64,000 nt of DNA, taken from IMG/VR virus record IMGVR_UViG_3300035208_002606; one strand, 5' to 3'. Each line of letters begins with the position of its first letter. The first letter of the stretch is position 1. Below, piece by piece: positions 18,457-32,491 of the stretch. The DNA is from a virus. Taxonomy: Duplodnaviria > Heunggongvirae > Uroviricota > Caudoviricetes. The notes under the pieces are model-generated. The model saw nothing but the letters and a program-made list of their open reading frames with translations, was not told the origin of the DNA and searched no databases. The translations under genes and the position numbers were made by a program.

Positions 18457-19111
18457 TGGTTATTAGTTAAGGTTTTCGGTGAACCTCCTAAGGTCGTACA
18501 GCGACCAAGGGTTATCGTACGTAAAAACCGAATTGGAATAGAGTAGGTTGGGGAAAGACGCCTAGGGTCTCCTGACCGAATTGGCTTTTGTGTCGTTGTG
18601 CCGCACCCACTTGATATCGTGGGCAGAGAAAACAACGGCTTGGAGTTCTTTGCCGTTATCCACCAATTCCATCGGCAGATAGGGTTGGTATTAAAAAATC
18701 AACGGCTTCCAATTTGATTTTACTGATTCTTTAAAAGAATCGGAAAACATAAAATGAGGCTTTCCGTTGTGCCATCCATCACCAAGTACCTAGAGTCGGG
18801 TTAATGGGAAAACAACGGGTTTCATTTTATTATCCTTGTTGTCCTTTATTGAGGTTAGCGGTGAGCCGCAAGAAGTGGTACTCGGAACTCCAATCCTAGC
18901 ACCTATGCTTGAAAAACCGCTGAGGTCAATGGCATTAATTTAGCAATGTATATATTGAGGCGAGAACGGGAGTAGAAATTGGGTTCTCCCTAATTCTGAC
19001 CTATTCCCATTCTCACTTCAAGCATTACTATCGCAGGAGGGAGGTCAATATCTCAGGTGGTTTCATATGCCATCTTAAAGTCGTGTAACTCGGCTTCCTG
19101 CTAGAAAATTA

Positions 19112-19188
19112 TCGCAGAGTATCCTAGTGGCTAAGGAATGAGTTTCATAAACTCGGAGCCGAAGGTTCGAATCCTTCCTCTGCGACCA
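19112..19188 (+). tRNA. tRNA-Met(CAT), CCA encoded
   Basis: Acceptor tcgcaga/tctgcga, loop ttcataa, T-arm gaaggttcgaatccttc. Confidence 0.7.
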
Positions 19189-19198
19189 AAGCAATTTT

Positions 19199-19287
19199 AC
19201 CGAAGGACGGTAGCCCCGTTTCCGCAAGAATAGGCATCGGCTAGCAAAACTATTCCATAGGAATGAGAGTAGCCTCTCATCTTCGGT
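19199..19287 (+). ncRNA. family-E-like element (divergent)
   Basis: accgaag/cttcggt termini, 3' hairpin tgaga-gtagcc-tctca, T-tract. Confidence 0.3.
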
Positions 19288-19294
19288 TTTTTAT

Positions 19295-19365
19295 GGCCCT
19301 ATCGGCTAATAGTAGGCCGCTTCCCTTTCAAGGAAGAAACGTCGGAGCGTAACCGGCTAGGGCTA
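19295..19365 (+). tRNA. tRNA-Glu(TTC)-like, non-canonical T-loop agcgtaa
   Basis: Acceptor ggcccta/tagggct, anticodon stem cttcc/ggaag, loop ctttcaa. Confidence 0.45.
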
Positions 19366-19378
19366 CTTAATTTTTTTC

Positions 19379-19449
19379 GTCCCTATCGGCTAATAGTAGG
19401 CCACTTCACTCTCAATGAAGAAACCTCAGAGCGTAACTGAGTAGGGATA
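19379..19449 (+). tRNA. tRNA-Glu(CTC)-like, tandem paralog of preceding
   Basis: Acceptor gtcccta/tagggat, loop ctctcaa, T-arm ctcag-agcgtaa-ctgag. Confidence 0.45.
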
Positions 19450-19466
19450 CTTAGCAATTTTATGTA

Positions 19467-19610
19467 TGGAGCGGGTCTTGAAAAACACAAGAACGTCTCG
19501 GAAAATAGGGGTTGAAGGCACCCCAACGATACGGGTAACGAAAAAAGGAGCAGTAGCCCTTTACAACCTATAAAGGGGACTTCCTTATGGGTGAAATTCC
19601 CATCGCTCCA
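19467..19610 (+). ncRNA. family-E-like element (divergent)
   Basis: tggagcg/cgctcca termini, 3' hairpin atggg-tgaaatt-cccat. Confidence 0.3.
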
Positions 19611-19623
19611 CTTGCAATTTTAT

Positions 19624-19751
19624 GCGCGGGGTCCGATTGGGTGACATTCCCACGAACTAGTTTCGCCATCAGGGAGTGATGCCCCAAAGTGGTGCAACGA
19701 AAAAGGTGAGGAAATCGCATCCCTTTAGACGGTGGAACTCCGTCCCTGCGC
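19624..19751 (+). ncRNA. family-E-like element (divergent)
   Basis: gcgcgggg/ccctgcgc termini, 3' hairpin gacgg-tggaact-ccgtc. Confidence 0.3.
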
Positions 19752-19765
19752 TTTTAAATTTTTAA

Positions 19766-19836
19766 GCCCGATTAGTTTAAAAGTAAAACGCAATCCTGAT
19801 AAGGTTGATACGGTGGAGCGTTACCATCATCGGGCA
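19766..19836 (+). tRNA. tRNA-Ile(GAT), non-canonical class
   Basis: Acceptor gcccgat/atcgggc, AC stem caatc/ggttg, loop ctgataa, T-loop agcgtta. Confidence 0.45.
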
Positions 19837-19840
19837 TTTA

Positions 19841-19925
19841 TGCCGTAGTAGTCTAGCAGCAATGACAGCAGACTGTAAATCTGCCCCTCGTAAGAGGTTC
19901 GTAGGTGCGAGTCCTTCCTGCGGCA
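19841..19925 (+). tRNA. tRNA-Tyr(GTA), class II, non-canonical T-loop
   Basis: AC arm gcaga-ctgtaaa-tctgc, variable hairpin cctc-gtaa-gagg, acceptor gccgtag/ctgcggc. Confidence 0.5.
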
Positions 19926-20253
19926 CTTTGTTTTGTTCTTTAGTCAGTCCACCTTGAGAGAGATACGCTTCAGCGGCTCTCTAAGTTTTGTCCGTCTTTA
20001 TTAGACAGATGGGCTTGTGGACGCTTTAGAATTCGTTGGCGGTGTGTAGGGCGTGTAGTTTTGAATGCGACTAGACAAACGGATGCCCTATGTCAGCGAA
20101 GATAAATTATAATTAGATATTAATTAGAATGGGAACCTTAGGGCGTTGAATTGTGTCGCAGGGTCAATTGCTCTAAGGGGATGAGTTTGGATTAACGGGC
20201 GGTGGAGCCGACCATTGTTTAGGCGTTGAAGCCGCCCGAAATTTTTGTCGTGT

Positions 20254-20324
20254 AGCCGCATAAGTTAAAGGCAAACTGGTTCACTTATAATGGACTCATC
20301 CTAGTTCGATTCTAGGTGCGGCTA
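20254..20324 (+). tRNA. tRNA with anticodon TAT (Ile-like)
   Basis: Acceptor agccgca/tgcggct, D-arm agtt-aaaggca-aact, loop cttataa, T-arm cctag-ttcgatt-ctagg. Confidence 0.4.
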
Positions 20325-20574
20325 GTTTTGTATTATCCAAAGGGAATGAATGGACGGAGTAATTAACCGAAAGTTTATTTTCCTTTGAATGAGATAAAGG
20401 GAGTCTAGATTCCCTTTTGAAGAGGATACCCTTTCGTCTAGTGGTTAGGACGGCGGCGCATTGCCGTTAACTTGGGTTCGAATCCCAACAGGGTTTTAGG
20501 ATGGCGGTTTGGGAGTTCATCTGTCTAGACAGAAGAATGTAAGTCCGTCTCCCCTCTTCTTTTTTATTTCAAAG

Positions 20575-20585
20575 TGTGGTATAAT
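20575..20585 (+). promoter_or_regulatory. extended -10 promoter upstream of tRNA-Ala
   Basis: gtgtggtataat. Confidence 0.55.
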
Positions 20586-20593
20586 AGAAGTAT

Positions 20594-20669
20594 GGGCGAT
20601 GGGACTGCTTGGGGTGGTCGCCTCACTTGCAATGAGGATATCAGGCGAGTTCGAATCTCGCATCGTCCA
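20594..20669 (+). tRNA. tRNA-Ala(TGC)
   Basis: Acceptor gggcgat/atcgtcc, AC arm cctca-cttgcaa-tgagg, T-arm gcgag-ttcgaat-ctcgc; extended -10 promoter 9 nt upstream. Confidence 0.65.
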
Positions 20670-20721
20670 CATTTTGAACCTAAATATTTTTCAAAACACT
20701 AAATAATAGTAAAGGTTCAAA

Positions 20722-21783
20722 ATGAAACAACGGCAAGGGATGAGTTATTCTGAGGCGGGGAAATTAGGAGCAAAAATAGGTTGTGAAATTGTTCAAAACA
20801 AATGGCAAAAAATTATCAAGGAATATGATAAAAACCCAAATCATTGTATAGTTTGTAATAAATCATTATCTTATTACAAACGTAATAAACAATTTTGCGG
20901 TTCTTCTTGTTCAGCAACTTATAATAACCAACATAGATTTTTTAAACCATCGGAAGATAAAAGAACAAAAATAATAAAATGTGCTAAATGTGGGAAAGAA
21001 ATAGAAGAAAATATTAGAGCAGGAAAAAATACAAAGTGCAGTAATTGTAAAACACAAATAAAAACAATAAAAATTATCAAAATAAATGGCAAAGAAACAA
21101 AAATTATAAGAAAAATAAGAAATCCTAAAATTCCAAAATTATGTAAATATTGTGGTCAGGAAAAATGCTTACGTCCTGATATATGTAGAAAACATCAATT
21201 ATTTCCAGCATTGATAAATTATTTCGGACTTAATAAATCTAAAATAGGAACAATTGATTTTTATGAAGAATTTGATAGAATACGAAATAAACTCATTGAG
21301 GAATATATAAATCAAAAAAGGAGTCTTGTTGAATTAAAGGAAAAATATAACCACCACGATATAAGAAATTTTAACAAACTTTTTGATAGTTTAAAAATTC
21401 CTAAACGAAATAATTCTGATTCCGTAAGAAATGCGGTTTTTAATGGTCGATATAAATTACCATCAGCACAATATCCATATAAACACGGTTGGCATACAAC
21501 TTGGGATAACAAAAAAGTTTTTTATCGTAGTTCTTACGAATTAGATTATGCAAAAGAACTAGATAAACAACAAATAGAATACGAAATGGAAAAATTAAGG
21601 ATACTTTATTGGGACAGCCAAAGACAAATACAACGAGTGGCAATTCCCGACTTTTATTTACCCAAGCAAAATAAAATAGTAGAAATAAAAAGTCCGTGGA
21701 CTTTGGACAAACAAAATATGAAGGATAAGGAAAAAGCATATAAAGAACACGGATATGTATTTGAATTAATTGTTGGAAAATAA
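20722..21783 (+). CDS. PD-(D/E)XK-family endonuclease with N-terminal Cys-rich zinc-finger region
   Basis: C-terminal ...IPDFYLPKQNKIVEIKS (PD...E-x-K); multiple CxxC pairs N-terminally; paralog at 23883. Confidence 0.5.
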   Translation: MKQRQGMSYSEAGKLGAKIGCEIVQNKWQKIIKEYDKNPNHCIVCNKSLSYYKRNKQFCGSSCSATYNNQHRFFKPSEDKRTKIIKCAKCGKEIEENIRAGKNTKCSNCKTQIKTIKIIKINGKETKIIRKIRNPKIPKLCKYCGQEKCLRPDICRKHQLFPALINYFGLNKSKIGTIDFYEEFDRIRNKLIEEYINQKRSLVELKEKYNHHDIRNFNKLFDSLKIPKRNNSDSVRNAVFNGRYKLPSAQYPYKHGWHTTWDNKKVFYRSSYELDYAKELDKQQIEYEMEKLRILYWDSQRQIQRVAIPDFYLPKQNKIVEIKSPWTLDKQNMKDKEKAYKEHGYVFELIVGK

Positions 21784-21787
21784 TCGC

Positions 21788-21858
21788 GCCCCACTAGTTC
21801 AATAGCAGAACGCATCACCTGTAATGATGATATGCGGGTGCAATTCCTGCGTGGGGCT
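21788..21858 (+). tRNA. tRNA-Thr(TGT), C33, non-canonical T-loop tgcaatt
   Basis: Acceptor gccccac/gtggggc, D-arm gttc-aatagca-gaac, AC arm catca-cctgtaa-tgatg. Confidence 0.45.
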
Positions 21859-21863
21859 TTTTT

Positions 21864-21935
21864 GCACACTTAGTTCAATCAGTAGAACATGACCCTCGTA
21901 AAGTCGAAACAGCGGAGCATAACCGTTAGTGTGCT
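21864..21935 (+). tRNA. tRNA-Thr(CGT), non-canonical T-loop agcataa
   Basis: Acceptor gcacact/agtgtgc, D-arm gttc-aatcagta-gaac, loop ctcgtaa. Confidence 0.45.
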
Positions 21936-21947
21936 TTGAAATTTCAT

Positions 21948-22018
21948 GCCGCCGTAGTTCAATGGCAGAACGCTTGTTCGGTAAACAAGAGACAATTGTT
22001 CGATTCAATTCTGCGGCT
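21948..22018 (+). tRNA. tRNA-Thr(GGT)
   Basis: Acceptor gccgccg/ctgcggc, AC arm cttgt-tcggtaa-acaag, T-arm aattg-ttcgatt-caatt. Confidence 0.55.
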
Positions 22019-22112
22019 CCACATTTACATCTATCTCATCTACCATAATCGTGTGTGGCGATTACTGAGAGTAGAAAGAGTTGGGCCATCGTTATGCGTT
22101 GGCCTTTCTGAT

Positions 22113-22207
22113 ATCGACAGAGGCATAAACAATTCAAAATTTATGTCGCATCCTTCGTTTGGGTGCAAGCGTGGTACGTTAGTGTCGGGTTACGCCGACC
22201 TGTCGAT
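22113..22207 (+). ncRNA. family-E element (short)
   Basis: atcgacag/ctgtcgat termini; 3' hairpin gtcgg-gttacg-ccgac. Confidence 0.35.
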
Positions 22208-22220
22208 TTTAATTATGATA

Positions 22221-22417
22221 ACCGACAGCGGCGTGGAAGGACACGCAAGACGAGGTTGTGAATGCTAGGAACTGCGGAATTGTCCACCGCTATCCTTGGC
22301 CTCTTGGTGATGCCCTATTTAATCGGGATGAACTCCGTAGAGAAGCATCATAAGCCCATGAAATGACATGGAACCAAGTGAGAGCATTCTAGTGGGTGTC
22401 GAACCCCACCTGTCGGT
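22221..22417 (+). ncRNA. family-E element
   Basis: accgacag/ctgtcggt; gcgtg-GAAGGA-cacgc; 3' hairpin gtggg-tgtcgaac-cccac; tttttta tail. Confidence 0.4.
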
Positions 22418-22435
22418 TTTTAGCATTTCATAATA

Positions 22436-22603
22436 ACCGCTAGCGGCGTGGAAGGACACGCCCATTATCTAATGAACATCTTAGGCCTAGCCCTTACAGG
22501 TTCGGGATGCGGTTGACGACCACATTGGCTGTGAGTAGGGAAGCAAATGGCAGGGGTAATTACCTGAAAATCTAGGAGTAGGTGTCGAATCCTACCTAGC
22601 GGT
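22436..22603 (+). ncRNA. family-E element
   Basis: accgctag/ctagcggt (compensatory change vs neighbours); gcgtg-GAAGGA-cacgc; gtagg-tgtcgaat-cctac. Confidence 0.4.
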
Positions 22604-22621
22604 TTTTAATTTGATTTTACA

Positions 22622-22801
22622 CTTGACAGCGGCGTGGAAAGCAGACACGCAGTTCATAGTGTGGGAAAAACTTTGGGTTGCAAATGAAAGCATCCTCCCG
22701 AGGACAAGCCCACATGGAAAGGAATGGAAACATTCTGGAATGCGAGGAGTAAGGCAGTAATAAGGGCATCGTAGAGTCGGAGTAGCGTCCGAACTGTCAA
22801 G
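22622..22801 (+). ncRNA. family-E element
   Basis: cttgacag/ctgtcaag; gcgtg-gaaagcaga-cacgc; 3' hairpin tcgga-gtagcg-tccga. Confidence 0.4.
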
Positions 22802-22832
22802 TTTATTTTGCAATTTTAAGAAGGAGGAAAAA

Positions 22833-23258
22833 ATGAATTATCGAAAAAAAGCATTTGAAGCATATCCCCATAAATGCGCTGTATGTGGATATGATAAATA
22901 CCCAGTACTTTTAGAAGTTCACCATAAAGATAAAAATAGGATGAACAATAATTTGGAAAATTTAGTAATTTTATGTATAACACATCACATGGAATTCCAT
23001 CTAGACCGTTTATGGTTAAATAGGAATAAACAGCGCATAGGTATTAATAAAGCAAAAAAACAAGGAAAATATAAAGGTAGGAAAAAGAAATTAACACATG
23101 AAGATTTAATGATAATAAAAGAAAGACTTCTAAATGGAGTAAAAAAAGCAAAAATTGCTAGAGAATTTAAAATTTCTAGAGCAACTTTATATTCATATAT
23201 TGGGTCTTGGGAAGTTACTGTAACTAGGACTATTACTGAAAAAAACATGCTCCCATGA
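22833..23258 (+). CDS. HNH endonuclease with C-terminal resolvase-type HTH
   Basis: CAVCGYD...EVHHKDKNRMNNNLENLVILCITHHMEFH; C-terminal GVKKAKIAREFKISRATLYSY HTH. Confidence 0.7.
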   Translation: MNYRKKAFEAYPHKCAVCGYDKYPVLLEVHHKDKNRMNNNLENLVILCITHHMEFHLDRLWLNRNKQRIGINKAKKQGKYKGRKKKLTHEDLMIIKERLLNGVKKAKIAREFKISRATLYSYIGSWEVTVTRTITEKNMLP

Positions 23259-23420
23259 TGTAATAGACAGCAACATACGCTTCGAACGTATGAGTTCGGG
23301 TGCAAATCCTGATGGGAGTGCTAGCATTATTAGATGGTGATAGGGGGCAACACCAACAAGTGCAGAACAGTCCGCTTCGAAAGAAGAAAGGAACATGACG
23401 GCTTGCTAAAGTCCCCTTTA

Positions 23421-23493
23421 AGCGAATTTGATGTAACAGTTAGCATCTGACCTTGCCAAGGTTAGCGTAAGGGTGCGAATCCCTTAATTCGCT
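23421..23493 (+). tRNA. tRNA-Gly(GCC), non-canonical T-loop tgcgaat
   Basis: Acceptor gcgaatt/aattcgc, D-arm gatg-taacagttag-catc, loop ttgccaa. Confidence 0.5.
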
Positions 23494-23499
23494 CTTTAT

Positions 23500-23584
23500 G
23501 ACAAGATGGCAGAGCGGTTTATTGTGGCAGTCTCGAAAACTGTTGGGTGTAACAGCCCCGAAAGTTCGAATCTTTCTCTTGTCG
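23500..23584 (+). tRNA. tRNA-Ser(CGA), class II
   Basis: Acceptor gacaaga/tcttgtc+G73, AC arm gcagt-ctcgaaa-actgt, long variable arm, T-arm gaaag-ttcgaat-ctttc. Confidence 0.65.
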
Positions 23585-23590
23585 AAGTAT

Positions 23591-23664
23591 GCACTCGTAC
23601 CGCAGAGGTTTAACGGGGCGGTCTGCAAAACCGTTATTCATTGGTTCGAATCCAATCGAGTGCT
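23591..23664 (+). tRNA. tRNA-Cys(GCA)
   Basis: Acceptor gcactcg/cgagtgc, loop ctgcaaa, T-arm attgg-ttcgaat-ccaat. Confidence 0.65.
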
Positions 23665-23678
23665 TTTTGAAATTTTAT

Positions 23679-23746
23679 GCGGGTATCGTCCAATAGTAGG
23701 ACTTCAGATTTCCACTCTGAAAATCTCGGCGCACATCCGGGTATCC
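23679..23746 (+). tRNA. tRNA-Gly(TCC), non-canonical T-loop
   Basis: Acceptor gcgggta/tatccgc, D-arm gtcc-aatagta-ggac, AC arm tcaga-tttccac-tctga. Confidence 0.45.
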
Positions 23747-23763
23747 GCTCTTTTATTATTTTA

Positions 23764-23838
23764 TGGCCTTGTGGCGCAACTGGATAACGCGTTGACCTGT
23801 TAAGTCAAGGATTGGTCGTTCAAATCGACTCAAGGCCG
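23764..23838 (+). tRNA. tRNA-Asn(GTT)
   Basis: Acceptor ggccttg/caaggcc, AC arm ttgac-ctgttaa-gtcaa, T-loop ttcaaat; followed by T9 run. Confidence 0.65.
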
Positions 23839-23882
23839 TTTTTTTTTGACTTGAACCTTTATCAAAAACAATAAATATAGTT

Positions 23883-24875
23883 ATGAGAAAGGTTCGAAAC
23901 AAACATATATGTAAAAACTGTCAAAAAGAATTTATTCCCAAACAAGAAGCATTTTATAAATTTTGTTGTCAATCGTGTGCGGCTACTTATAATAATCAAC
24001 ATAGAATTTTTAAACCATCAGAAGACAAAAGAACAAAAATAATAAAATGCGCTAAATGTGGTAAAGAAATAGAAGTAAATATTAGGTCTGGTAAAAATAC
24101 AAAATGTGCCGATTGCAAAGAATATGTAAAAATTATCATCCCATCTACTAAAGGAAAAAGGTGGATAAAAAAGAAAACAATAAGAAATCGTAAAATTTAT
24201 CCATGTAAATATTGTGGGCAAGAAAAATGTTTACGGCCTGATATTTGTAAAAGATATCGTTTATTTCCTCGGCTTATAAAATATTTTGGATTGGACGAAA
24301 CCAAAATAGGAACAATTGAAATTTATGAAGAATTTGACCGCATAAGAAATAAACTCATTGAGGAATATTGGGACAAATTAACACCAATGGGTGATATTTG
24401 TAAACAATATAATTATTATGATAATGTTAGTAATTTTGCCTTTATTTTTAAATACCTAGACATCCCAAAAAGAACCCTTTCCGAAGCAGTAAGATTAAAT
24501 ATCAAAAATGGCAAATGCGTATCAACCCAAATAAACAACCAACGACCATATAAACACGGTTGGCACACTACTTGGGATAACAAACAGGTTTTTTACAGAA
24601 GTTCTTACGAATTAGATTATGCAAAAGAACTAGACGAACAAAAAATAGAATACAAAATGGAAAATCTTCGAATCCTTTATTGGGATAGCCAAAGACAAAT
24701 ACAACGAGTGGCAATTCCCGACTTTTATTTACCCAAGCAAAATAAAATAGTAGAAATAAAAAGTAAATTTACTTATAACGAACAAAATATGAAAGATAAA
24801 TTTAAATTTTATAAAGAACATGGATATAAAGTTAAACTAATTTTAGAACATAAAGAAATATTTATAGATTCATAA
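23883..24875 (+). CDS. PD-(D/E)XK-family endonuclease with N-terminal zinc-finger region (paralog of 20722-21783)
   Basis: Same C-terminal block ...YKHGWHTTWDNK...RVAIPDFYLPKQNKIVEIKS; CxxC pairs. Confidence 0.5.
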   Translation: MRKVRNKHICKNCQKEFIPKQEAFYKFCCQSCAATYNNQHRIFKPSEDKRTKIIKCAKCGKEIEVNIRSGKNTKCADCKEYVKIIIPSTKGKRWIKKKTIRNRKIYPCKYCGQEKCLRPDICKRYRLFPRLIKYFGLDETKIGTIEIYEEFDRIRNKLIEEYWDKLTPMGDICKQYNYYDNVSNFAFIFKYLDIPKRTLSEAVRLNIKNGKCVSTQINNQRPYKHGWHTTWDNKQVFYRSSYELDYAKELDEQKIEYKMENLRILYWDSQRQIQRVAIPDFYLPKQNKIVEIKSKFTYNEQNMKDKFKFYKEHGYKVKLILEHKEIFIDS

Positions 24876-24889
24876 TATGTTTTTATGTC

Positions 24890-24973
24890 GCTGAAGTGGT
24901 GGAAAGGTTTACACGCCGTCTTGAGGTGGCGGTGTCGAAAGGCATGAGCGTTCGAATCGCTCCTTCAGCACCA
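24890..24973 (+). tRNA. tRNA-Leu(GAG), class II, CCA encoded
   Basis: Acceptor gctgaag/cttcagc, loop ttgaggt, T-arm gagcg-ttcgaat-cgctc. Confidence 0.65.
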
Positions 24974-25096
24974 ATGTAATATTAATGAATGGTGATAAGC
25001 GAATGGTCGCCAGGTCGCACCTGAGTAGGTTCGATTCCTACGATTGCCGTGGTCGGTGCGGGGTTCGATTCCCCAATCGCCATTCATTCTTTTTAT

Positions 25097-25169
25097 GGCA
25101 AGGTCGCTTACGTGGTCATAGCGTCCCGCTGAAGACGGGAAAATGGGTGTTCGATTCACCCCCTTGCCA
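25097..25169 (+). tRNA. tRNA-Phe(GAA)
   Basis: Acceptor ggcaagg/ccttgcc, AC arm tcccg-ctgaaga-cggga, T-arm gggtg-ttcgatt-caccc. Confidence 0.65.
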
Positions 25170-25203
25170 TCGTCTATTTTACTAAATACTGTTAGAGGAC
25201 GAT

Positions 25204-25704
25204 ATGAAATTTAGAAAAGTAGAAGAATTATCCGATATCGAAATGATGAATAAAACTTCACGCCCTGATGATTATACATCGGTAACGACAAAGTTTATTC
25301 TTAGCACATTCAAACCCGAACAAGGTTTGACTTTCTTGGATTACGGAGCAGGAAAGAAGGCTACCCAAACAAAAAAATTATTGGAAGCAGGATACGATGT
25401 TACTGCTTATGAAATGGGTGGCAACGTAACTGAATTACATGATAAAAACGCATTAAATAAAAAATACGATGTCGCCTTCGCCTCTAATGTTTTGAATGTT
25501 CAACCAACAATGACATTAATCCGTCAAATGCTTGTAGAAATGAGCCTATCTTCAAAAAAATATATCATTATGAACTACCCAAGTTCACCTAGAAAGTTTA
25601 GAGACCATTTTATCAACAACAAAGAAATGAAAAAAATTATCGAAGATAACCTTGAGGGGGAAGTTAAAGTTTACCCCAACACAATTTTCGTTTATCAAAA
25701 GTAA
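25204..25704 (+). CDS. small class I SAM-dependent methyltransferase-like protein
   Basis: LTFLDYGAGKK motif I, acidic YE post-I, DVAFASNVLN motif; embedded in tRNA cluster. Confidence 0.5.
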   Translation: MKFRKVEELSDIEMMNKTSRPDDYTSVTTKFILSTFKPEQGLTFLDYGAGKKATQTKKLLEAGYDVTAYEMGGNVTELHDKNALNKKYDVAFASNVLNVQPTMTLIRQMLVEMSLSSKKYIIMNYPSSPRKFRDHFINNKEMKKIIEDNLEGEVKVYPNTIFVYQK

Positions 25705-25716
25705 TTCAAATTTTTT

Positions 25717-25799
25717 GCCGGGGTGGTGTAATGGCAGACACAGCAGACTCAAAATCTGCCGCTCGTATGGGCGTGTGGGTTCAACTCCCTCTCCCGGCA
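25717..25799 (+). tRNA. tRNA-Leu(CAA), class II
   Basis: Acceptor gccgggg/tcccggc, D-arm gtgt-aatggcag-acac, loop ctcaaaa; paralog of tRNA at 29184. Confidence 0.6.
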
Positions 25800-25806
25800 T
25801 TTTCAT

Positions 25807-25877
25807 GGAGTCGTATTTCAACGGAAGAAGGGCTGACTCTTAATCAGTAGATGTGGGTTCGATTCCCGCCGACTTCA
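25807..25877 (+). tRNA. tRNA-Lys(CTT)
   Basis: Acceptor ggagtcg/cgacttc, AC arm gctga-ctcttaa-tcagt, T-arm gtggg-ttcgatt-cccgc. Confidence 0.5.
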
Positions 25878-25892
25878 TTTGCAATTTTATAT

Positions 25893-25963
25893 GGGTCTAT
25901 ATGTCAACGGTAGACGAGTGGGCCTTTAACCCAAAGATGGGGGTTCGATTCCCTCTAGACTCA
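25893..25963 (+). tRNA. tRNA-Lys(TTT)
   Basis: Acceptor gggtcta/tagactc, loop cctttaa, T-arm ggggg-ttcgatt-ccctc. Confidence 0.5.
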
Positions 25964-25971
25964 TTTTTTAT

Positions 25972-26044
25972 GCCCTGTTAGTTCAATTGGACAGAACACA
26001 TCCCTACGAAGGATAAAATGGGGATTCAAATTCCTCACGGGGTA
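25972..26044 (+). tRNA. tRNA-Arg(ACG)
   Basis: Acceptor gccctgt/acggggt, D-arm gttc-aattggaca-gaac, loop ctacgaa, T-loop ttcaaat. Confidence 0.6.
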
Positions 26045-26067
26045 CTTTCTAAAAAATAAATAATAGT

Positions 26068-26385
26068 ATGCAAAAGAAGGTATATCTATTATGGTGGATT
26101 TTATTCGTCAATATCTTGGATATAATCGTAACCTATTATGCATTTCATAACGAATTGCCCGTAAAAGAAATAGGCCCATTGGGGGCAAGCAACTCCGCAC
26201 TCATCTTCGGGTCATTGTTTAATTTGTTTGTTATTTCCCTTTGTTATTATATTGTTAAAACATACAAAAAAACAAAGGCACTAATGTTCAGAATTTTTTC
26301 AGGATTGATTCTTTTTTGGGCAGTATTCGATACCGCCGTAATCATCAATAATTTTTGGGTGATTCTTCAAGTCCTGCGGGGTTAA
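26068..26385 (+). CDS. small integral membrane protein
   Basis: 105 aa, three hydrophobic segments. Confidence 0.4.
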   Translation: MQKKVYLLWWILFVNILDIIVTYYAFHNELPVKEIGPLGASNSALIFGSLFNLFVISLCYYIVKTYKKTKALMFRIFSGLILFWAVFDTAVIINNFWVILQVLRG

Positions 26386-26451
26386 TTCAGCGGCTAGAAT
26401 GTCGGTCCTACAAACCGAACATCGGGGGTTCGAGTCCCTCACCCCGCACCA
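26376..26451 (+). tRNA. tRNA-Val(TAC), CCA encoded
   Basis: Acceptor gcggggt/accccgc, AC arm tcggt-cctacaa-accga, T-arm ggggg-ttcgagt-ccctc. Confidence 0.6.
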
Positions 26452-26469
26452 TTTTTCACTAAATAACAG

Positions 26470-27049
26470 TATGAAGTTCAAAATCATGGAATACAACAAA
26501 GACATTTACAATCAGCGTCCCGACACTTCGGGAAAGTTCAACAGGGGTGCTTATCGTGAGCCTACATTCAACAGGGAGAAGGATTACAAAGAATCGAAAG
26601 CATCTGAATTGGAAGTGCGTGAGTATTTTATTTCCAAGGGGTTCGAGTTCGTGAAGGAAGGCGGCATCATGTACGATGCCATGTTCAAGTGTACGAAGGA
26701 GCCTTTTAATCTTGAAGGTTGGGAAGTCAAGAAATATTGGACTGCCGAAGTCAAGGAAAGTTTCAAATCGCAACTCACGGGAAATGTCCCGATAGAATAT
26801 CAACAGCACGGGCATCCGACAGGAGTGGCGCAGACACAGGCAGATTTTTGGGTTGAAAAAATTCACGAGCCTAGCGGAAAAATATCGTTCGTGATAATGT
26901 GGACGAAAGACCTGAGAAAAATGATAGCAGAGAAAAAATATTTCAGGACTGCCTCAGGCGGCGACCCCGGAAGCGAAAGTTTGGTCTATCTTTTTAAAGT
27001 AGATGTGTTCAAACAACACGGAAAAATCCTAGACATTAAGACTTATTAG
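26470..27049 (+). CDS. hypothetical protein (MKFKIME start)
   Basis: ORF; first in-frame ATG at 26399 overlaps the tRNA, so start placed at MKFK ATG. Confidence 0.45.
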
Positions 27050-27143
27050 GGAAGATGGCAGAGCGGTTTAATGCATCTGCCTTGAAAGCAGACAAGGGTG
27101 CTAATACCATCCTTCAGGGGTTCGAATCCCTTTCTTCCCGCCA
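27049..27143 (+). tRNA. tRNA-Ser(TGA), class II, CCA encoded
   Basis: Acceptor gggaaga/tcttccc+G, AC arm tctgc-cttgaaa-gcaga. Confidence 0.65.
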
Positions 27144-27146
27144 TAT

Positions 27147-27231
27147 GAAAAGATGGCAGAGTGGACGATTGCATCCGCTTGGAAAGCGGAAGGGCATAAC
27201 AGCCTCAGAGGTTCGAATCCTCTTCTTTTCG
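27147..27231 (+). tRNA. tRNA-Ser(GGA), class II
   Basis: Acceptor gaaaaga/tcttttc+G, AC arm tccgc-ttggaaa-gcgga, T-arm agagg-ttcgaat-cctct. Confidence 0.65.
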
Positions 27232-27237
27232 TTTTAC

Positions 27238-27325
27238 GGTGAGTTGGCAGAGCGGTTGAATGCGGCATCCTGCTAAGATGTTGGGTGTAACAGCCCCGCA
27301 AGTTCGAATCTTGCACTCGCCGCCA
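27238..27325 (+). tRNA. tRNA-Ser(GCT), class II, CCA encoded
   Basis: Acceptor ggtgagt/actcgcc+G, loop ctgctaa, T-arm gcaag-ttcgaat-cttgc. Confidence 0.65.
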
Positions 27326-27329
27326 TTAC

Positions 27330-27403
27330 GCCCGTGTAGCCTAAGGGATGAGGCAACTGACTTCTAATCAGTTCTTATGGGAGTTCGAGTCTCTCCACGG
27401 GTG
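27330..27403 (+). tRNA. tRNA-Arg(TCT)
   Basis: Acceptor gcccgtg/cacgggt, D-arm gcct-aagggatg-aggc, AC arm actga-cttctaa-tcagt. Confidence 0.6.
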
Positions 27404-27411
27404 CTTGTATA

Positions 27412-27481
27412 GGGCCGTAACCCAATGGTTAGGGTCGTGGGCTTTGAACCCATTTATCTTCGTTCGAGTCGAAGCGGCCCT
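27412..27481 (+). tRNA. tRNA-Gln(TTG)
   Basis: Acceptor gggccgt/gcggccc, loop ctttgaa, T-arm cttcg-ttcgagt-cgaag. Confidence 0.55.
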
Positions 27482-27491
27482 GCATTATTTT

Positions 27492-27664
27492 ATCGACAGC
27501 GGCGTGGAAGGACACGCGAACCGAATCATGGGGGCAACGGACACCTGGCATGCCCCGATATCGCCCAGGATGTTTACTCCTAAATCGGGTAGGGCGAAGC
27601 ATAACACGCGGCGTTGCGGGACGCCGACCCATGATGTAGCCGGTATCAAGCCCGACCTGTCGAT
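27492..27664 (+). ncRNA. family-E element
   Basis: atcgacag/ctgtcgat; gcgtg-GAAGGA-cacgc; internal atcatgggg/ccccatgat helix; abuts tRNA-Arg(CCT). Confidence 0.4.
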
Positions 27665-27671
27665 TTTATTA

Positions 27672-27742
27672 AGCCCCTGTAGCGTAATGATAGCGCACAG
27701 GTTTCCTAAACCTACGGTCTAAGTTCGATTCTTAGCAGGGGT
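27672..27742 (+). tRNA. tRNA-Arg(CCT)
   Basis: Acceptor gcccctg/caggggt, loop ttcctaa, T-arm ctaag-ttcgatt-cttag; abuts 3' end of an E element. Confidence 0.45.
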
Positions 27743-27753
27743 ACGAATTATTT

Positions 27754-27826
27754 TAGCCGTTTGGTGAAATAGTTATCACATCTGCCTCTGAAGCAGATAT
27801 TCTTAGTGCGAATCTAGGAGCGGCTG
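27754..27826 (+). tRNA. tRNA-Gln(CTG), non-canonical T-loop tgcgaat
   Basis: Acceptor agccgtt/agcggct, D-arm gtga-aatagtta-tcac, AC arm tctgc-ctctgaa-gcaga. Confidence 0.5.
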
Positions 27827-27832
27827 TTTATA

Positions 27833-27906
27833 TTGGGTGGTAAGTCAATAGAAGACGCGTAGTATCGGAAACTACGAGTTGCGAGTGCAAGTCTCGCTCA
27901 CCCAAT
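27833..27906 (+). tRNA. tRNA-Pro(CGG), non-canonical T-loop tgcaagt
   Basis: Acceptor ttgggtg/cacccaa, AC arm gtagt-atcggaa-actac, T-arm gcgag-tgcaagt-ctcgc. Confidence 0.5.
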
Positions 27907-27989
27907 TTTTATGTTGACCGTAGCCAAGACAGCGAACGGCGATGCAGAACGCATCAGTTTAGGGGTGCAACCCCCTTCGGTCAACTCAT

Positions 27990-28061
27990 GGTGAGTGTAG
28001 TTCAACAGTAGAACGCCCGACTGTGAATCGGGGAATGCAAGGGCAGCACTTGTCACTCACC
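27990..28061 (+). tRNA. tRNA-His(GTG) with encoded G-1
   Basis: g|gtgagtg...cactcac|c (G-1:C73), D-arm gttc-aacagta-gaac, AC arm cccga-ctgtgaa-tcggg; unusual T-loop. Confidence 0.55.
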
Positions 28062-28067
28062 CCAAAT

Positions 28068-28150
28068 GCTGATATGGTGTAATTTGGTAGCCACGCTAGT
28101 CTTAGGAACTAGTCCTTAATTGGGTGTGGGTTCGAGTCCCTCTATCAGCA
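28068..28150 (+). tRNA. tRNA-Leu(TAG), class II
   Basis: Acceptor gctgata/tatcagc, AC arm ctagt-cttagga-actag. Confidence 0.6.
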
Positions 28151-28157
28151 CATTTAT

Positions 28158-28244
28158 GTCGATATGGCGCAAAGGGAGACGCAACGGTTTCAGAAACCGT
28201 CCGTTGGTCAACAGCGGCTATAGGTTCAAATCCTATTATCGGCA
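28158..28244 (+). tRNA. tRNA-Leu(CAG), class II
   Basis: Acceptor gtcgata/tatcggc, AC arm acggt-ttcagaa-accgt, T-arm atagg-ttcaaat-cctat. Confidence 0.65.
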
Positions 28245-28451
28245 CTTGTATTTTAATTTTTAAGGGAGGATATATGAAATGAAAATGAAAATCGAAACTC
28301 GTGGGACTCTTCCAAAGCGGAGTAGGAGACATTGGATTTTTACAATTTTTCCATCAATCTCATTATGTTATATTAAGCATGATAGTTTCAACATAGATAT
28401 GCGTTGGTTATTTTGGTCGTTAGAAATTCTTTTATTTTTTAAGGAGCAAGA

Positions 28452-29198
28452 ATGAAGAAAGATGACATCGGTAACAGAATGAAATCTGCATACGAGAACA
28501 GGACACGAATCTGTCTTCCCCGTAGGACAAACATCATCATCCGTATTGACGGCAAGGCGTTCCACTCTTATACCCGTGGAATGAAGAGGCCGTTTGATGA
28601 TGGGTTCATGGGAGACATGGATACAACTGCGGCCTACCTCTGCAAGAACATTCAGGGGGCTAAATTTGCGTTCGTGCAGTCAGACGAAATTTCAATCCTT
28701 CTGACCGACTACGACAAAATCACAACGGACGCATGGTTCGACAACAACGTGCAAAAGATGGCAAGTGTGTCAGCAAGTATGGCAACGAGAGCCTTCAATG
28801 AGGCAAGAATGAATAGAATTATTCGAACAGGAGAGGGGGAAATGAAGTGGGCAGAGTTCGACAGCAGGGTATTCCAAATTCCTGAGTGGCACGAAGTCGA
28901 GAACTACTTCATTTGGAGACAGCAGGACTGCGTTCGCAACAGTATTCAATCTGTTGCTCAATCCCTCTACTCTCACAAGCAACTCAACGGCAAAAATACG
29001 AACGAGATGCAGGAAATGATTTTCCAAAAGGGAATCAATTGGAACGATTACGACCCCAAGTACAAGAGGGGTCGAGCAATTGTGAAAGAGGAATACATTG
29101 GCGATTCGGCAGTTCCGCGCCATCGTTGGAAGTCTCAAGGTTGCCCTGTTCTTACGCAAGCAAGAGACTTCATTAAGTTTACAGCCGGGATGGTGTAA
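28452..29198 (+). CDS. Thg1-like protein (tRNA-His guanylyltransferase family; 3'-5' nucleotide addition / tRNA 5'-end repair)
   Basis: TNIIIRIDGKAFHSYTRGMKRPFDDGFMGDMDTTA...FAFVQSDEISILL matches the Thg1/TLP catalytic core; 3' end overlaps tRNA-Leu(TAA) by ~15 nt. Confidence 0.7.
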   Translation: MKKDDIGNRMKSAYENRTRICLPRRTNIIIRIDGKAFHSYTRGMKRPFDDGFMGDMDTTAAYLCKNIQGAKFAFVQSDEISILLTDYDKITTDAWFDNNVQKMASVSASMATRAFNEARMNRIIRTGEGEMKWAEFDSRVFQIPEWHEVENYFIWRQQDCVRNSIQSVAQSLYSHKQLNGKNTNEMQEMIFQKGINWNDYDPKYKRGRAIVKEEYIGDSAVPRHRWKSQGCPVLTQARDFIKFTAGMV

Positions 29199-29269
29199 TG
29201 GTAGCCACAGCAGACTTAAAATTTGCCGCTCGTATGGGCGTGTGGGTTCAAGTCCCTCTCCCGGCACCA
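29184..29269 (+). tRNA. tRNA-Leu(TAA), class II, CCA encoded
   Basis: Acceptor gccggga/tcccggc, loop cttaaaa; near-duplicate of tRNA-Leu(CAA) at 25717. Confidence 0.65.
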
Positions 29270-29270
29270 C

Positions 29271-29345
29271 GGGTCAGTCCGTTAATGGTTAAACGGTTGG
29301 TCTCCAAAACCAATCCTGGAGGTTCGAATCCTTCCTGACCCGCCA
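29271..29345 (+). tRNA. tRNA-Trp(CCA), CCA encoded
   Basis: Acceptor gggtcag/ctgaccc, D-arm ccgt-taatggttaa-acgg, AC arm ttggt-ctccaaa-accaa. Confidence 0.7.
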
Positions 29346-29393
29346 TTGTCTTATCAACCACAAAACCAAAATGTGAAGCAATCTGCTTCAAAG

Positions 29394-29404
29394 TGTGATA
29401 TAAT
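29394..29404 (+). promoter_or_regulatory. extended -10 promoter
   Basis: gtgtgatataat. Confidence 0.5.
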
Positions 29405-29439
29405 AAGTATGAAGGAAAATTTAATAAGGAGAAGAAAGA

Positions 29440-30024
29440 ATGAAAGAATTAAACAACGAAACAATTATAGTAACAAGTAAAAAATTAACAAGAGATATTC
29501 GTAGACTTATCAGAAATGCACAAAAACAACACGATGAAAATATAAAAGAATGGAAAACCTCTCCATTTTATAAATTAAAGGCAGGATTACCCATAAAAGT
29601 AATAGGTGAAACAATAGGAGAAGGAATATTCAAATTAATGCTTAACCAATTAAAGATTAAATATAAAAAGAATCCAAATAATGATTTAATTATATATGAA
29701 GGCAACAAAGAAGAGTCTACAGAAATTAAATTTAGCACTAGGGGTAAAAAAAATAAAAACGGAAACTTCTGCATTTTATATAATCAATGTAGACTAGAGG
29801 AAAATGTTGACACTTTTCATTTTATGAATGTTTTTCCAGAAAATTATATTGATATTTGGAAAATTTCTAAACAAGAATTCGAAAAATATTTAGAATCACA
29901 CCCCAAAGAAAAAATTATTCCAAAAAGTTCAAAAATAAAAAATGAAAAATTTATTCAATTTAAAAATTTTAATGATACATGGGATTCTTCTGTTTTTCAT
30001 CATAAATATCGGATTATACTTTAA
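29440..30024 (+). CDS. hypothetical protein
   Basis: 194 aa ORF downstream of extended -10 promoter (29399-29404); ATGA-coupled to radical SAM gene. Confidence 0.45.
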   Translation: MKELNNETIIVTSKKLTRDIRRLIRNAQKQHDENIKEWKTSPFYKLKAGLPIKVIGETIGEGIFKLMLNQLKIKYKKNPNNDLIIYEGNKEESTEIKFSTRGKKNKNGNFCILYNQCRLEENVDTFHFMNVFPENYIDIWKISKQEFEKYLESHPKEKIIPKSSKIKNEKFIQFKNFNDTWDSSVFHHKYRIIL

Positions 30025-31250
30025 TGCACCTTCTTCTAATTGAACCTGATATTGATGTAATTTTGAAGCAGAAGAGTTTATTCAAAACAGAAAAGAAAAA
30101 GATTAGAGAATCAAAAGTTATTAAATACATCGCCCCAAATTTGGCAATGCTCAAATGGGCAACTTGGGCAGAAAATAACGGACATACTTATCAATATGTA
30201 ATAGGGAAAAAACATATTTTCCAAAAAGAACCCGACCTTATTTTGATAAGTTGCATATTTTCTTTTTACTCGAAAGAATATACAGACATCATTAATTATT
30301 ACAGAGAGACCTTTAGAAATGCCAAATTTATAATTGGCGGGGCATTTCCAACCCTCAATCCCGAATGGTTTAAAGCCAAATTTCCTTATGCCGAAATTCA
30401 TCAGGGTATTCGTCCCGAAATAGAAGACTTAGTTCCAAATTATGCAGTCACCCCTTGGTCAAAAAAAATCATCGGCTACGCAAGCCGTGGGTGTGTCAAC
30501 GCTTGCAAATACTGTGCCGTTTCCAAATTGGAAGGCAAAATGCGCTCTTTCCCGACAATCAGACCGATGATAGAAAAGGGAATAAAAGAAATCGGCAATC
30601 CCACAGGCATTGTTCTTTACGACAATAATTTTACCGCCCACGAATACTTCGACAATATTTGTGACGAGTTGGAAGAGTTTGGATTGCCCGTCGATATTCA
30701 CGGATTGCACGTTTCCGCTTTCAACGAACACCACGCCGAAAGATTTGCAAGGTTGAAATGGGGCGCACAGCACGAAGCAGGAACGGCATACATGCGATTC
30801 TCGTTCGACTTCGTGGGATATCAACCCCACATTCACAGGGCGTTAAAATTGGTGGAGAAACACAAAATCAAGGCGGCATTTTTTTGTTATATGCTCTTCA
30901 ATTGGGTTGACAGTCCCGATGATTTTTGGAAGCGCATCGTACAGGCACAGGAAATGACGGACGATGTCAGCAGAACCATTTTCCTGTTCCCCCAACGCTT
31001 TGAACCTCTCGACTCCCTAGAACGCAACAAGTTCGTAGGAACCAAATGGGACAAGGAGTTAGTCGCAGGGGTTGTTAAACTTTACACTTTCATGCACGGG
31101 TTCCTGCCCGTCACGACCTCTCACAATATCTTTAATTGGATTGGATATACGAAGGAAGAGTTCTTCGACAACGCAAGGAAATTCGCAACGGATAAAACCT
31201 TTAAACTTGTCAAGAAAAATGGGGACCCACCGAAGACCTTTAAATTGTAA
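30024..31250 (+). CDS. B12-binding-domain radical SAM protein
   Basis: CVNACKYC (Cx3Cx2C) radical SAM cluster motif after an N-terminal B12-binding-like domain. Confidence 0.65.
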   Translation: MHLLLIEPDIDVILKQKSLFKTEKKKIRESKVIKYIAPNLAMLKWATWAENNGHTYQYVIGKKHIFQKEPDLILISCIFSFYSKEYTDIINYYRETFRNAKFIIGGAFPTLNPEWFKAKFPYAEIHQGIRPEIEDLVPNYAVTPWSKKIIGYASRGCVNACKYCAVSKLEGKMRSFPTIRPMIEKGIKEIGNPTGIVLYDNNFTAHEYFDNICDELEEFGLPVDIHGLHVSAFNEHHAERFARLKWGAQHEAGTAYMRFSFDFVGYQPHIHRALKLVEKHKIKAAFFCYMLFNWVDSPDDFWKRIVQAQEMTDDVSRTIFLFPQRFEPLDSLERNKFVGTKWDKELVAGVVKLYTFMHGFLPVTTSHNIFNWIGYTKEEFFDNARKFATDKTFKLVKKNGDPPKTFKL

Positions 31251-31498
31251 AATGGTCAGAAGATTGACAGAGGACGAACGAGAGTGGTTGAGAAAAAAGC
31301 AGAATTGTGGATGATTCTCCACCCCGAATATCAAGAAAGCCAATTGCGAGAACCCCCGCCGACTTGCGAAGAGTTGGGTTGTAAATATTACAAACATTGT
31401 TCAGGAGAACTTTTGGCAGAATTTACTCTTCCTTCTGTTGCTCCTGCGTGTTTCGGGTTTCTTTGGCCCAAAGATAAAGACATTAGATTGTAACAACT

Positions 31499-31509
31499 TG
31501 TGGTATAAT
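31499..31509 (+). promoter_or_regulatory. extended -10 promoter
   Basis: cttgtggtataat. Confidence 0.5.
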
Positions 31510-31537: not shown

Positions 31538-32491
31538 ATGATTGGAATTTGGTTATTGGGACTTACAGTAATCGGTCTTATTGTGGCAGTTATCGGTGGG
31601 ATAGTCTACAAGGTTAATTCCGACTCCGAAGGCGCAATGGGGACTATGGTAGTGGGAATTATTATGTTCCTGCTTTTCGGCATCCTCTTCGGATTGCGGT
31701 GCTTCACCGTTATCGATGCGGGAGAAACTGGCGTTCAGGTGATGTTCGGCAAGGTTCTTGATAAGACGCTGACGGAAGGCCTGAGTAGCAAGAACCCGTT
31801 CGCATCCGTGGATAAGTACAATATTCAGTTACGTGAAACCACGATGGATATCAAGGACGGAAATCATCTTCAGGCATTGACCGCCGACAAGTTAGCCGTC
31901 AAGATTGAAGCAACGATTTGGTGGAAGATTATCAAAGAAGATGTTAAAATGATTCGGCGGGAAATCTCTGATGATGCCGATGATATTGCCGACATGATTA
32001 CTTTCCCCTCTATACGTTCAGCAGTTAGGGACGCATCGGTTTATTACACCTTTGAGGAGATTACCTCTGTCAAGGGCCGTACTGAATTGACTGCCAAAAT
32101 TGACGAAATCCTGATTCGTCTGACCAAGGGTAAGGGAGTAGTCATCGACAATGTACTAATTCGTAATGTTGTTCCTGAAGATAAGCGAGTAACTCAGGCT
32201 ATCGGTAGAAAACTTGAACAGCAACAGCAACTTCAGGCAAAGGAATACGAATTGAGCAAGGCTCAAATGGATGCCAAGATTCGTATTCAGAACGCTGAAG
32301 GTATTGCTTCAGCACAGCACATTATTGACAAGACCCTCACGCCTGAATATCTTCAGTTCGAGGCCATTCAAATGATGAAGGAAGTGGCACACAGCCCCAA
32401 TTCCACCTTCGTCTTTGTCCCCACCCATCAGGGTGAAATAGGGATGCCGATGGTGTACAGTCTGAAGGATTTCCAAAAAACCAAAAAGTAA
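31538..32491 (+). CDS. SPFH/band-7 (stomatin/prohibitin-like) membrane protein
   Basis: N-terminal TM helix then FTVIDAGETGVQVMFGKV SPFH signature; promoter at 31504-31509; terminator after. Confidence 0.7.
   Translation: MIGIWLLGLTVIGLIVAVIGGIVYKVNSDSEGAMGTMVVGIIMFLLFGILFGLRCFTVIDAGETGVQVMFGKVLDKTLTEGLSSKNPFASVDKYNIQLRETTMDIKDGNHLQALTADKLAVKIEATIWWKIIKEDVKMIRREISDDADDIADMITFPSIRSAVRDASVYYTFEEITSVKGRTELTAKIDEILIRLTKGKGVVIDNVLIRNVVPEDKRVTQAIGRKLEQQQQLQAKEYELSKAQMDAKIRIQNAEGIASAQHIIDKTLTPEYLQFEAIQMMKEVAHSPNSTFVFVPTHQGEIGMPMVYSLKDFQKTKK

Follow-up and report, generated by a model that had tools for sequence, protein, structure and literature searches.

A Thg1-like protein gene within the tRNA island of an uncultured large phage, and its probable part in tRNA 5'-end repair

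The IMG/VR virus record IMGVR_UViG_3300035208_002606 (Caudoviricetes) carries a gene for a Thg1-like protein (TLP) within a long array of tRNA genes. A stretch of 64,000 nucleotides, referred to here as the window, was analysed out of a source sequence of 239,128 bp. The features at the locus, including open reading frames (ORFs), a ribosome-binding site (RBS) and a Shine-Dalgarno (SD) sequence, are as follows:

17352-29345, plus strand: tRNA island of 39-40 tRNA genes covering 20/20 amino acids, with homing-endonuclease genes between them
27990-28064, plus strand: tRNA-His(GTG), found by Rfam, with G-1 and CCA encoded and a non-canonical T loop, GGCAGCA
28068-28245, plus strand: tRNA-Leu(TAG) and tRNA-Leu(CAG), directly upstream of a variable slot
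28262-28269, plus strand: AAGGGAGG, an RBS homologous to the RBS region in relatives
28274-28282, plus strand: ATGAAATGA, a two-codon ORF (Met-Lys-stop), a chance-level motif
28279-28455, plus strand: 58-codon orphan ORF filling the variable slot upstream of the TLP gene
28441-28446, plus strand: AAGGAG, the SD sequence of the TLP gene as read from the sequence, 5 nt ahead of the ATG at 28452
28452-29198, plus strand: TLP gene, an intact ORF of 248 aa, of the bacterial TLP type
29184-29345, plus strand: tRNA-Leu(TAA) (29184-29269), then tRNA-Trp(CCA)

The initial annotation of this DNA, made from sequence motifs, assigned the gene to the Thg1/TLP family, and profile and structure searches bore this identity out. 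The quoted motifs RIDGKAFH, DDGFMGDMDTTA and FVQSDEISILL are all found in the 248-aa ORF. Residues 9-144 match the Pfam family Thg1, PF04446, with 99 bits where the cutoff is 29.2 (E 2.6e-28), and the PHROG 4717 profile 'tRNA-His guanylyltransferase' matches with an E-value of 5e-87; the Thg1C domain scored 24.5 bits, slightly below its cutoff of 26.3, and a search of NCBIfam gave no matching model. The closest characterised protein is the Bacillus thuringiensis TLP (BtTLP, PDB 4KGK), about 50% identical across 239 residues (E 8.7e-65, 221.6 bits), against 36-51 bits for eukaryotic Thg1; eukaryotic Thg1 and the archaeal MaTLP reached E-values of 1e-8 to 1e-12 at best. The HINNLYN motif of Candida Thg1 aligns to VRNSIQS in the window protein, and BtTLP likewise has no HINNLYN. 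An AlphaFold (AF2) model, for which 20 relatives were used, reached moderate confidence (predicted local distance difference test, pLDDT, 69.8; predicted TM score 0.70). Foldseek searches with this model returned 32 PDB matches at E<=0.001, every one a Thg1/TLP chain, with 4KGM at the top (E 2.5e-19, TM 0.70-0.80; 4KGM and 4KGK both at about 1e-19). On these alignments the protein is classed as a repair-type TLP and not as a eukaryotic-type G-1 enzyme.

Active-site residues were mapped by alignment to BtTLP in the numbering of PMC3701042. The catalytic carboxylates of the family are two metal-binding aspartates and a glutamate (D30, D75 and E76 in BtTLP; D29, D76 and E77 in hTHG1). The initial annotation had staked its reading on the conserved carboxylates, and all three are kept, as D33, D78 and E79. 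The full map of nine positions, with BtTLP equivalents in brackets, comprises E15 (E12), R31 (R28), D33 (D30), H38 (H35), S77 (S74), D78 (D75), E79 (E76), R139 (R131) and R156 (R147), and all nine are invariant among 20 clade members of 63-85% identity; the active site is intact. BtTLP M158 is replaced by serine (S167). In MaTLP a flexible beta-hairpin (R198-R215) bears a conserved arginine that touches the tRNA elbow; in the model of the window protein residues 208-229 form a beta-hairpin in which R223 and W226 are invariant, at most a candidate counterpart of the MaTLP hairpin. The tail beyond residue ~240 is not conserved among the 20 clade members.

The initial annotation also joined the gene to the tRNA island, and it does lie within the array of 39-40 tRNAs. 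Seven metagenomic relatives (L001, L002, L003, L015-17, L018-20, L021 and L022) encode TLPs 74-85% identical to that of the window, and in all seven the order tRNA-His, tRNA-Leu(TAG), TLP, tRNA-Leu, tRNA-Trp is kept. The reported overlap of the 3' end of the gene with tRNA-Leu(TAA) was found as well: the first 15 nt of the tRNA gene are the last four TLP codons and the stop codon (29196-29198). The junction between the TLP gene and the following tRNA is tight in most relatives (1-12 nt in four of six), and the overlap in the window is one variant of it:

L015 and L021: 1 nt
L022: 6 nt
L018: 12 nt
L002 and L003: 1 nt by ORF reading, ~38 nt by the ARAGORN tRNA start
L001: no tRNA directly after the TLP gene

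The L018 protein has the same C-terminus, FTAGMV followed by the stop, encoded on a 19-nt relic of the 5' end of the window-type tRNA-Leu, and a different tRNA-Leu stands next. By this comparison of sequences the 15-nt overlap is a packing accident rather than a conserved device.

The slot between the tRNA-Leu genes and the TLP gene is variable in content:

L002, L003 and L022: slot empty; an RBS region homologous to 28246-28273 abuts the TLP ATG
L001 and L021: a 120-aa RF-1/GGQ-domain gene, preceded by an RBS region homologous to AAGGGAGG
L015: just a 3' remnant of the RF-1 gene (about 3930-4000)
L018: an HNH endonuclease

The 178-nt filler of the window adds another variant to this series. 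The 120-aa protein (L001 5635-5997, L021 3635-3997), for which the best NCBIfam models are PrfH, RF1/RF2 and ArfB, may work in ribosome rescue alongside tRNA repair; its gene is absent from the window.

Control of the TLP gene by a leader peptide or by translational coupling, through the Met-Lys-stop ORF, the 58-codon ORF or both, had been suggested in the initial annotation. Part of the description stood: ATGAAATGA does lie behind AAGGGAGG, and the stop codon TGA of the 58-codon ORF does overlap the TLP start as ATGA, but the coordinates given for the ORF (28278-28454) were one off, the correct ones being 28279-28455. A strong SD sequence precedes this ORF, which was also called by the gene callers in JGI, ENA and Logan, and the AAGGGAGG region is 82% identical over 38 nt to that of L022. 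The ATG at 28274 is just 4 nt from the SD core. Against such control, the Met-Lys-stop motif is equally frequent on the non-coding strand: ORFs of the form ATG-NNN-stop number 57 on the plus and 53 on the minus strand of the window, with an SD-like 4-mer upstream in 5 and 4 of them, respectively. The TLP gene carries its own SD sequence, and the slot that would hold the leader is empty in three relatives and occupied by an RF-1 gene or an HNH endonuclease in others. The 58-aa product matched only itself among 5.8 billion (5.8e9) proteins; no relative of the ORF was found in IMG/VR, nor in the fetched loci by tblastn, blastn or tblastx, and it is absent from 7/7 syntenic relatives. Its codon score of -0.026 per codon, compared with 0.188+-0.084 for same-length pieces of the window's long genes, is under 99.4% of real-gene segments and falls within the distribution of spurious ORFs; its GC content is 31.6%, against 46.9% for the TLP gene. 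In the spacer 28246-28451 the predicted minimum free energy (MFE) of folding has a z-score of -0.09, with no match in Rfam and no terminator-like site, and a structured RNA or riboswitch was rejected there on the z-score and the Rfam result. Descent of the 58-codon ORF from an RF-1/GGQ (L001/L021) or HNH (L018) remnant found no support, as blastn, tblastn and tblastx gave a 13-nt low-complexity match only. A promoter and terminator scan of 26000-31500 gave counts near the shuffle expectation and was uninformative. The 58-codon ORF is probably non-coding, or a recent AT-rich insert. Neither it nor the Met-Lys-stop ORF is part of the TLP system, and the lack of conservation largely refutes the leader idea; such control is highly improbable.

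Further genes predicted to act in RNA repair were found in the window:

8660-9865, plus strand: T4 Rnl1-type RNA ligase (PF09511, E 1.4e-26; phrog_562, E 2.6e-57)
12898-14286 (with HD domain) and 14283-15374, plus strand: two tandem class-II CCA-adding-type tRNA nucleotidyltransferases (PF01743, PF12627)
15344-15937, plus strand: P-loop kinase resembling polynucleotide kinase (AAA_33, E 7.6e-18; phrog_505, E 1.6e-11)
48338-49288, plus strand: RlaP, an RNA-repair nucleotidyltransferase of the Pol-beta family (PF10127, E 2.5e-21)

Both tandem genes match phrog_2244 (E 2e-80 and 3e-58), and the pair is possibly split into CC-adding and A-adding enzymes. The phage is T4-superfamily-like, its large terminase being distantly T4-like. 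Elsewhere, a metallophosphoesterase gene lies directly downstream of the TLP gene in L008/L012, HAD_SAK_2 domains occur near TLP genes, and a polynucleotide kinase is encoded three genes downstream in mycobacteriophage Pound. Recurrence among the neighbours in seven non-syntenic IMG/VR loci is weak (HAD_SAK_2 in two, Metallophos in two, GIY-YIG in two). Thin as it is, this set of neighbour families suggests RNA repair.

The tRNA-His gene lies 390 nt upstream of the TLP gene. It was found by Rfam only, at 49.2 bits. Its acceptor stem is of 8 bp, with G-1 (27990) paired to C73 (28061) and followed by an encoded CCA, as the initial annotation had noted in regard to G-1. Bacterial tRNA-His is encoded in this way, and RNase P then leaves G-1 in place. 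The G-1:C73 pair is encoded also in L002, L007 and L022. The tRNA-His of the relatives L001 (5445-5519) and L021 (2987-3061) encodes neither G-1 (position -1 is T or A) nor CCA, has U73 and is mismatched at both 4:69 and 5:68, while in L015 (about 3702-3776), L017 and L018 G-1 stands opposite U73 and there is a U4.U69 mismatch. The TLP could be necessary for tRNA-His in those phages.

Such variants are among the evidence for an enzyme dedicated to G-1 of tRNA-His, of phage or host, acting for example after miscleavage of the unusual phage tRNA-His by RNase P. The conserved order of tRNA-His, tRNA-Leu and TLP fits this explanation, and the odd T and D loops of the window tRNA-His might disturb the choice of site by RNase P. 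Caulobacter phages carry TLPs, and Caulobacter tRNA-His has no G-1; this, together with the encoded G-1:C73 and CCA of the window and the G-1:C73 of three relatives, speaks against it. The protein is moreover of the repair-type class and not of the Thg1 class, and templated addition opposite the U73 of L001/L021 would give A-1, not G-1. TLPs do have a second, anticodon-dependent mode of tRNA-His binding in which G-1 is added opposite C73 (PMC4820378). On balance, a dedicated tRNA-His enzyme, though the main rival reading, is unlikely.

General repair of tRNA 5' ends, which the initial annotation had preferred over G-1 addition, is supported as the better reading because the protein is closer to BtTLP (221 against 36-51 bits), G-1 is already encoded and RNA-repair genes are present in the window. 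BtTLP repairs tRNA 5' ends in a template-dependent manner (PMC3701042), and both BtTLP and MaTLP carry out anticodon-independent 5' repair, with G-1 addition also possible (PMC3701042, PMC4820378). Judged from sequence and context, the TLP is most likely the 5'-end arm of a phage kit for tRNA maintenance and repair, a role for which we infer its enzymatic activity and its tRNA substrates. It would add nucleotides in the 3'-to-5' direction to a shortened tRNA 5' end, with the 3' strand of the acceptor stem as Watson-Crick template, and would also be able to restore G-1 of tRNA-His opposite C73. The two CCA-adding-type enzymes would form the 3'-end arm, and the Rnl1-type ligase, the kinase and RlaP an arm for broken anticodon loops. 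Such a kit would keep the ~40 tRNAs of the phage, and those of the host, usable during infection, and the position of the TLP gene in the tRNA operon would probably lead to its co-transcription and co-expression with its substrates.

Several points weigh against a role in 5'-end repair. In six GenBank phages inspected no tRNA gene lies within 6 kb of the TLP gene, and the same holds for 10/14 IMG/VR loci; embedding in a tRNA array is therefore a feature of the window's clade. No known host defence nuclease that removes 5' nucleotides from tRNAs was identified, and the damage is hypothetical. Acceptor pairs 1-7 were scored for all 40 tRNA candidates, and the stems pair well: mismatches are isolated and number three in total, just one of them within pairs 1-3, so that the tRNA genes themselves create no need for 5' editing. 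The structure model is of moderate confidence only, and no experimental study of any phage TLP was found in the literature searched. Finally, BtTLP K43, which positions the activating ATP, is arginine (R46) in the window protein and in 18/20 clade members. In BtTLP the K43A substitution lowers adenylylation ~10-fold and does not lower guanylylation (PMC3701042); from the alignment, the change to R46 is a conservative one and appears compatible with membership of the TLP class.

A more specific version of the 5'-end repair reading, in which the enzyme serves in counter-defence, is tentative and rather doubtful. The 5' acceptor strand would be cut by a host nuclease, or nibbled by exonucleases after RNase P-independent cuts, and would be rebuilt by templated 3'-5' synthesis. 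Together with the CCA-adding-type enzymes, the Rnl1-type ligase, the kinase and RlaP, co-expressed from within the tRNA operon, this may amount to tRNA repair at three sites (the 5' end, the 3' end and the anticodon loop), and in L001/L021 the enzyme may supply G-1 as well.

The tRNA island was delimited with ARAGORN and Rfam. Default ARAGORN found 32 tRNAs in 17352-29345, and a further seven came from Rfam; relaxed ARAGORN gave 39, including a doubtful extra tRNA-Ser(cga) at ~25003-25085, and still missed tRNA-His. The seven tRNAs missed by default ARAGORN have non-canonical T loops (for example AGCGUAA or GGCAGCA, compared with UUCRANY) and D loops without the GG pair:

19295-19365 and 19379-19449: two tRNA-Glu
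19766-19836: tRNA-Ile(GAT)
21864-21935: tRNA-Thr(CGT)
23679-23749: tRNA-Gly(TCC)
27834-27905: tRNA-Pro(CGG)
27991-28061: tRNA-His

The altered elbow of these seven might allow escape from host factors that target tRNAs. At 20426-20497 lies an odd 'tRNA-Met(CAT)', called by ARAGORN only and below the Rfam gathering threshold, with U2.U71 and a G at position 33. Mitochondrial-type 5' editing was rejected, pairs 1-3 being mismatched only in this 1 of 40 tRNAs.

Genes of the homing-endonuclease type (HNH, endonuclease-I-like and GIY-YIG) stand among the tRNAs at 20722-21783, 22833-23258 and 23883-24875, and others at 2176-2895 and 55054-56358; those interspersed in the island fit the variable gene slots between tRNAs in the relatives. 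Another overlap from tight packing is seen at 26399-27049, where a 216-aa ORF (phrog_13596) starts inside tRNA-Val (26376-26451) and ends on the first base of tRNA-Ser(TGA), an arrangement called in L015 too. The true start is probably the internal methionine of MKFKIMEYNK at codon 25, because the first ~18 codons are tRNA sequence.

The island also contains structured elements. A GC-rich repeat family of 95-200 nt occurs at 22113-22207, 22221-22417, 22437-22603, 22623-22790 and 27492-27664, and in L002 at 5347-5472. Its closing stem, (A)CCGACAG...CUGUCGG(U), shows compensatory changes, the 5' motif AGCGGCGUGGAAGGACACGC is common to most copies, and in some a T-arm-like hairpin forms the 3' end. 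Four of the copies stand in tandem; the other lies between tRNA-Gln and tRNA-Arg, as it does in L002. Rfam holds no family for these elements, which probably give stable small RNAs by processing along with the tRNAs. Between tRNA-Pro(CGG) and tRNA-His there is a cloverleaf-like element of 73 nt (27913-27985), made up of three hairpins and a closing stem of 8 bp (MFE -28.5, z -2.9). Its 'anticodon' loop is merely 5 nt long. Neither ARAGORN nor Rfam called this element, and the relatives do not have it; a tRNA-like RNA, or else a tRNA in decay, could be its nature.

With six unannotated structured elements in the island (the cloverleaf-like element and five repeat copies), the TLP might act on a substrate other than tRNA, such as tRNA-like island RNAs with acceptor-like stems, or perform other 5'-end chemistry (activation or capping). 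Some eukaryotic TLPs act on non-tRNA substrates. Yet nothing links the structured RNAs directly to the TLP, L022 and L015 keep the gene without the cloverleaf-like element, and the characterised bacterial and archaeal TLPs all act on tRNA (PMC3701042, PMC4820378); a non-tRNA role is improbable.

Downstream of the TLP gene, by one to four genes, the clade has a Band_7/SPFH (prohibitin-like) gene:

window: 31538-32491
L015: 7713-8690
L021: 5367-6227
L022: 4751-5701
L028: 7395-8204

A Band_7/SPFH gene is also found downstream of the TLP gene in the distant Fusobacterium phage FNU2, though this repeated occurrence may be due to chance. After the tRNA island the window encodes a B12-binding radical SAM protein (30024-31250; phrog_9298, E 2.8e-34), preceded by a 194-aa orphan (29440-30024). 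A radical SAM gene is again present downstream of the TLP gene in L018, and an unannotated gene of similar size in L015. The radical SAM protein might be an RNA-modifying enzyme.

The initial annotation had described such enzymes as rare in phages, which was overstated. Searches with tblastn found TLP homologues in 162 of 50,697 GenBank phage records, all below 60% identity, most of them already annotated as tRNA-His guanylyltransferase, and at least 7,997 homologues at E<=1e-20 were found in a large protein database. The 162 records are all of large phages, many of them jumbo phages and usually tRNA-rich, with hosts that include Bacillus (46), Prevotella (Lak phages, 15), Caulobacter (13) and Mycobacterium (11). 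A paper of 2010 reported the gene from a caudovirus and proposed a role in tRNA repair (PMC2904730), one of 2013 described it as unusual in Bacillus phage Bc431v3 (PMC3601020), and Iyer et al. listed it in 2021 among the RNA-repair enzymes of jumbo phages (PMC7824862); the family also has its own profile, PHROG 4717. A nucleotide search of 27000-30500 against GenBank phages gave no match, and the phage therefore has no cultured close relative. The TLP gene thus belongs to a known family, correctly identified here in a large uncultured phage, and is not a discovery. With the family already known in phages, it is the tRNA-operon setting that is informative. This clade combines a TLP gene set in a tRNA operon, tRNA-His genes of which some encode G-1 and others do not, and repair enzymes in the same genome; it is a convenient natural system for asking which 5'-end damage TLPs repair in vivo, and could show whether phages protect both tRNA ends against host nucleases.

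Among known systems, BtTLP (4KGK/4KGM) resembles the window protein in length (245 and 248 aa), in the carboxylates and nucleoside triphosphate-binding arginines and in having no HINNLYN; unlike BtTLP, the window TLP is phage-encoded, lies inside a tRNA operon and has its last four codons derived from a tRNA. Eukaryotic Thg1 (yeast, human and Candida; 3OTB, 3WBZ, 5XOX and 7CV1) shares the fold, the two-metal site and the chemistry, 5' activation followed by 3'-5' nucleotidyl transfer, at 20-23% identity. It recognises the His anticodon and adds an untemplated G-1 opposite A73, whereas the window TLP is without HINNLYN. The phage genes of PHROG 4717 (gp143 of Bc431v3 and those of Bcp1, phage G, Cronobacter phage GAP32, Caulobacter phage CcrColossus and the Prevotella Lak phages) belong to the same family; in contrast to the six phages inspected, the window and its seven relatives have the gene inside the tRNA array. 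Mitochondrial 5' editing by TLPs in Acanthamoeba and Dictyostelium likewise sets a TLP alongside a compact set of tRNA genes. That editing needs mismatches in the first three acceptor pairs, whereas 39/40 window tRNAs are paired there, and 5' editing is therefore not required in the window. Compared with T4 Pnkp and Rnl1, no 2',3'-phosphatase domain was identified among the window ORFs scanned (64 kb of a 239-kb genome), and the repair genes are dispersed (8.6-16 kb, 28 kb and 48 kb) rather than in a single operon. Taken together, the Rnl1-type ligase, the kinase resembling polynucleotide kinase, RlaP, the CCA-adding-type enzymes and the Thg1 family protein of the window correspond to the group 2/3 jumbo-phage set (PMC7824862, section 3.4.9).

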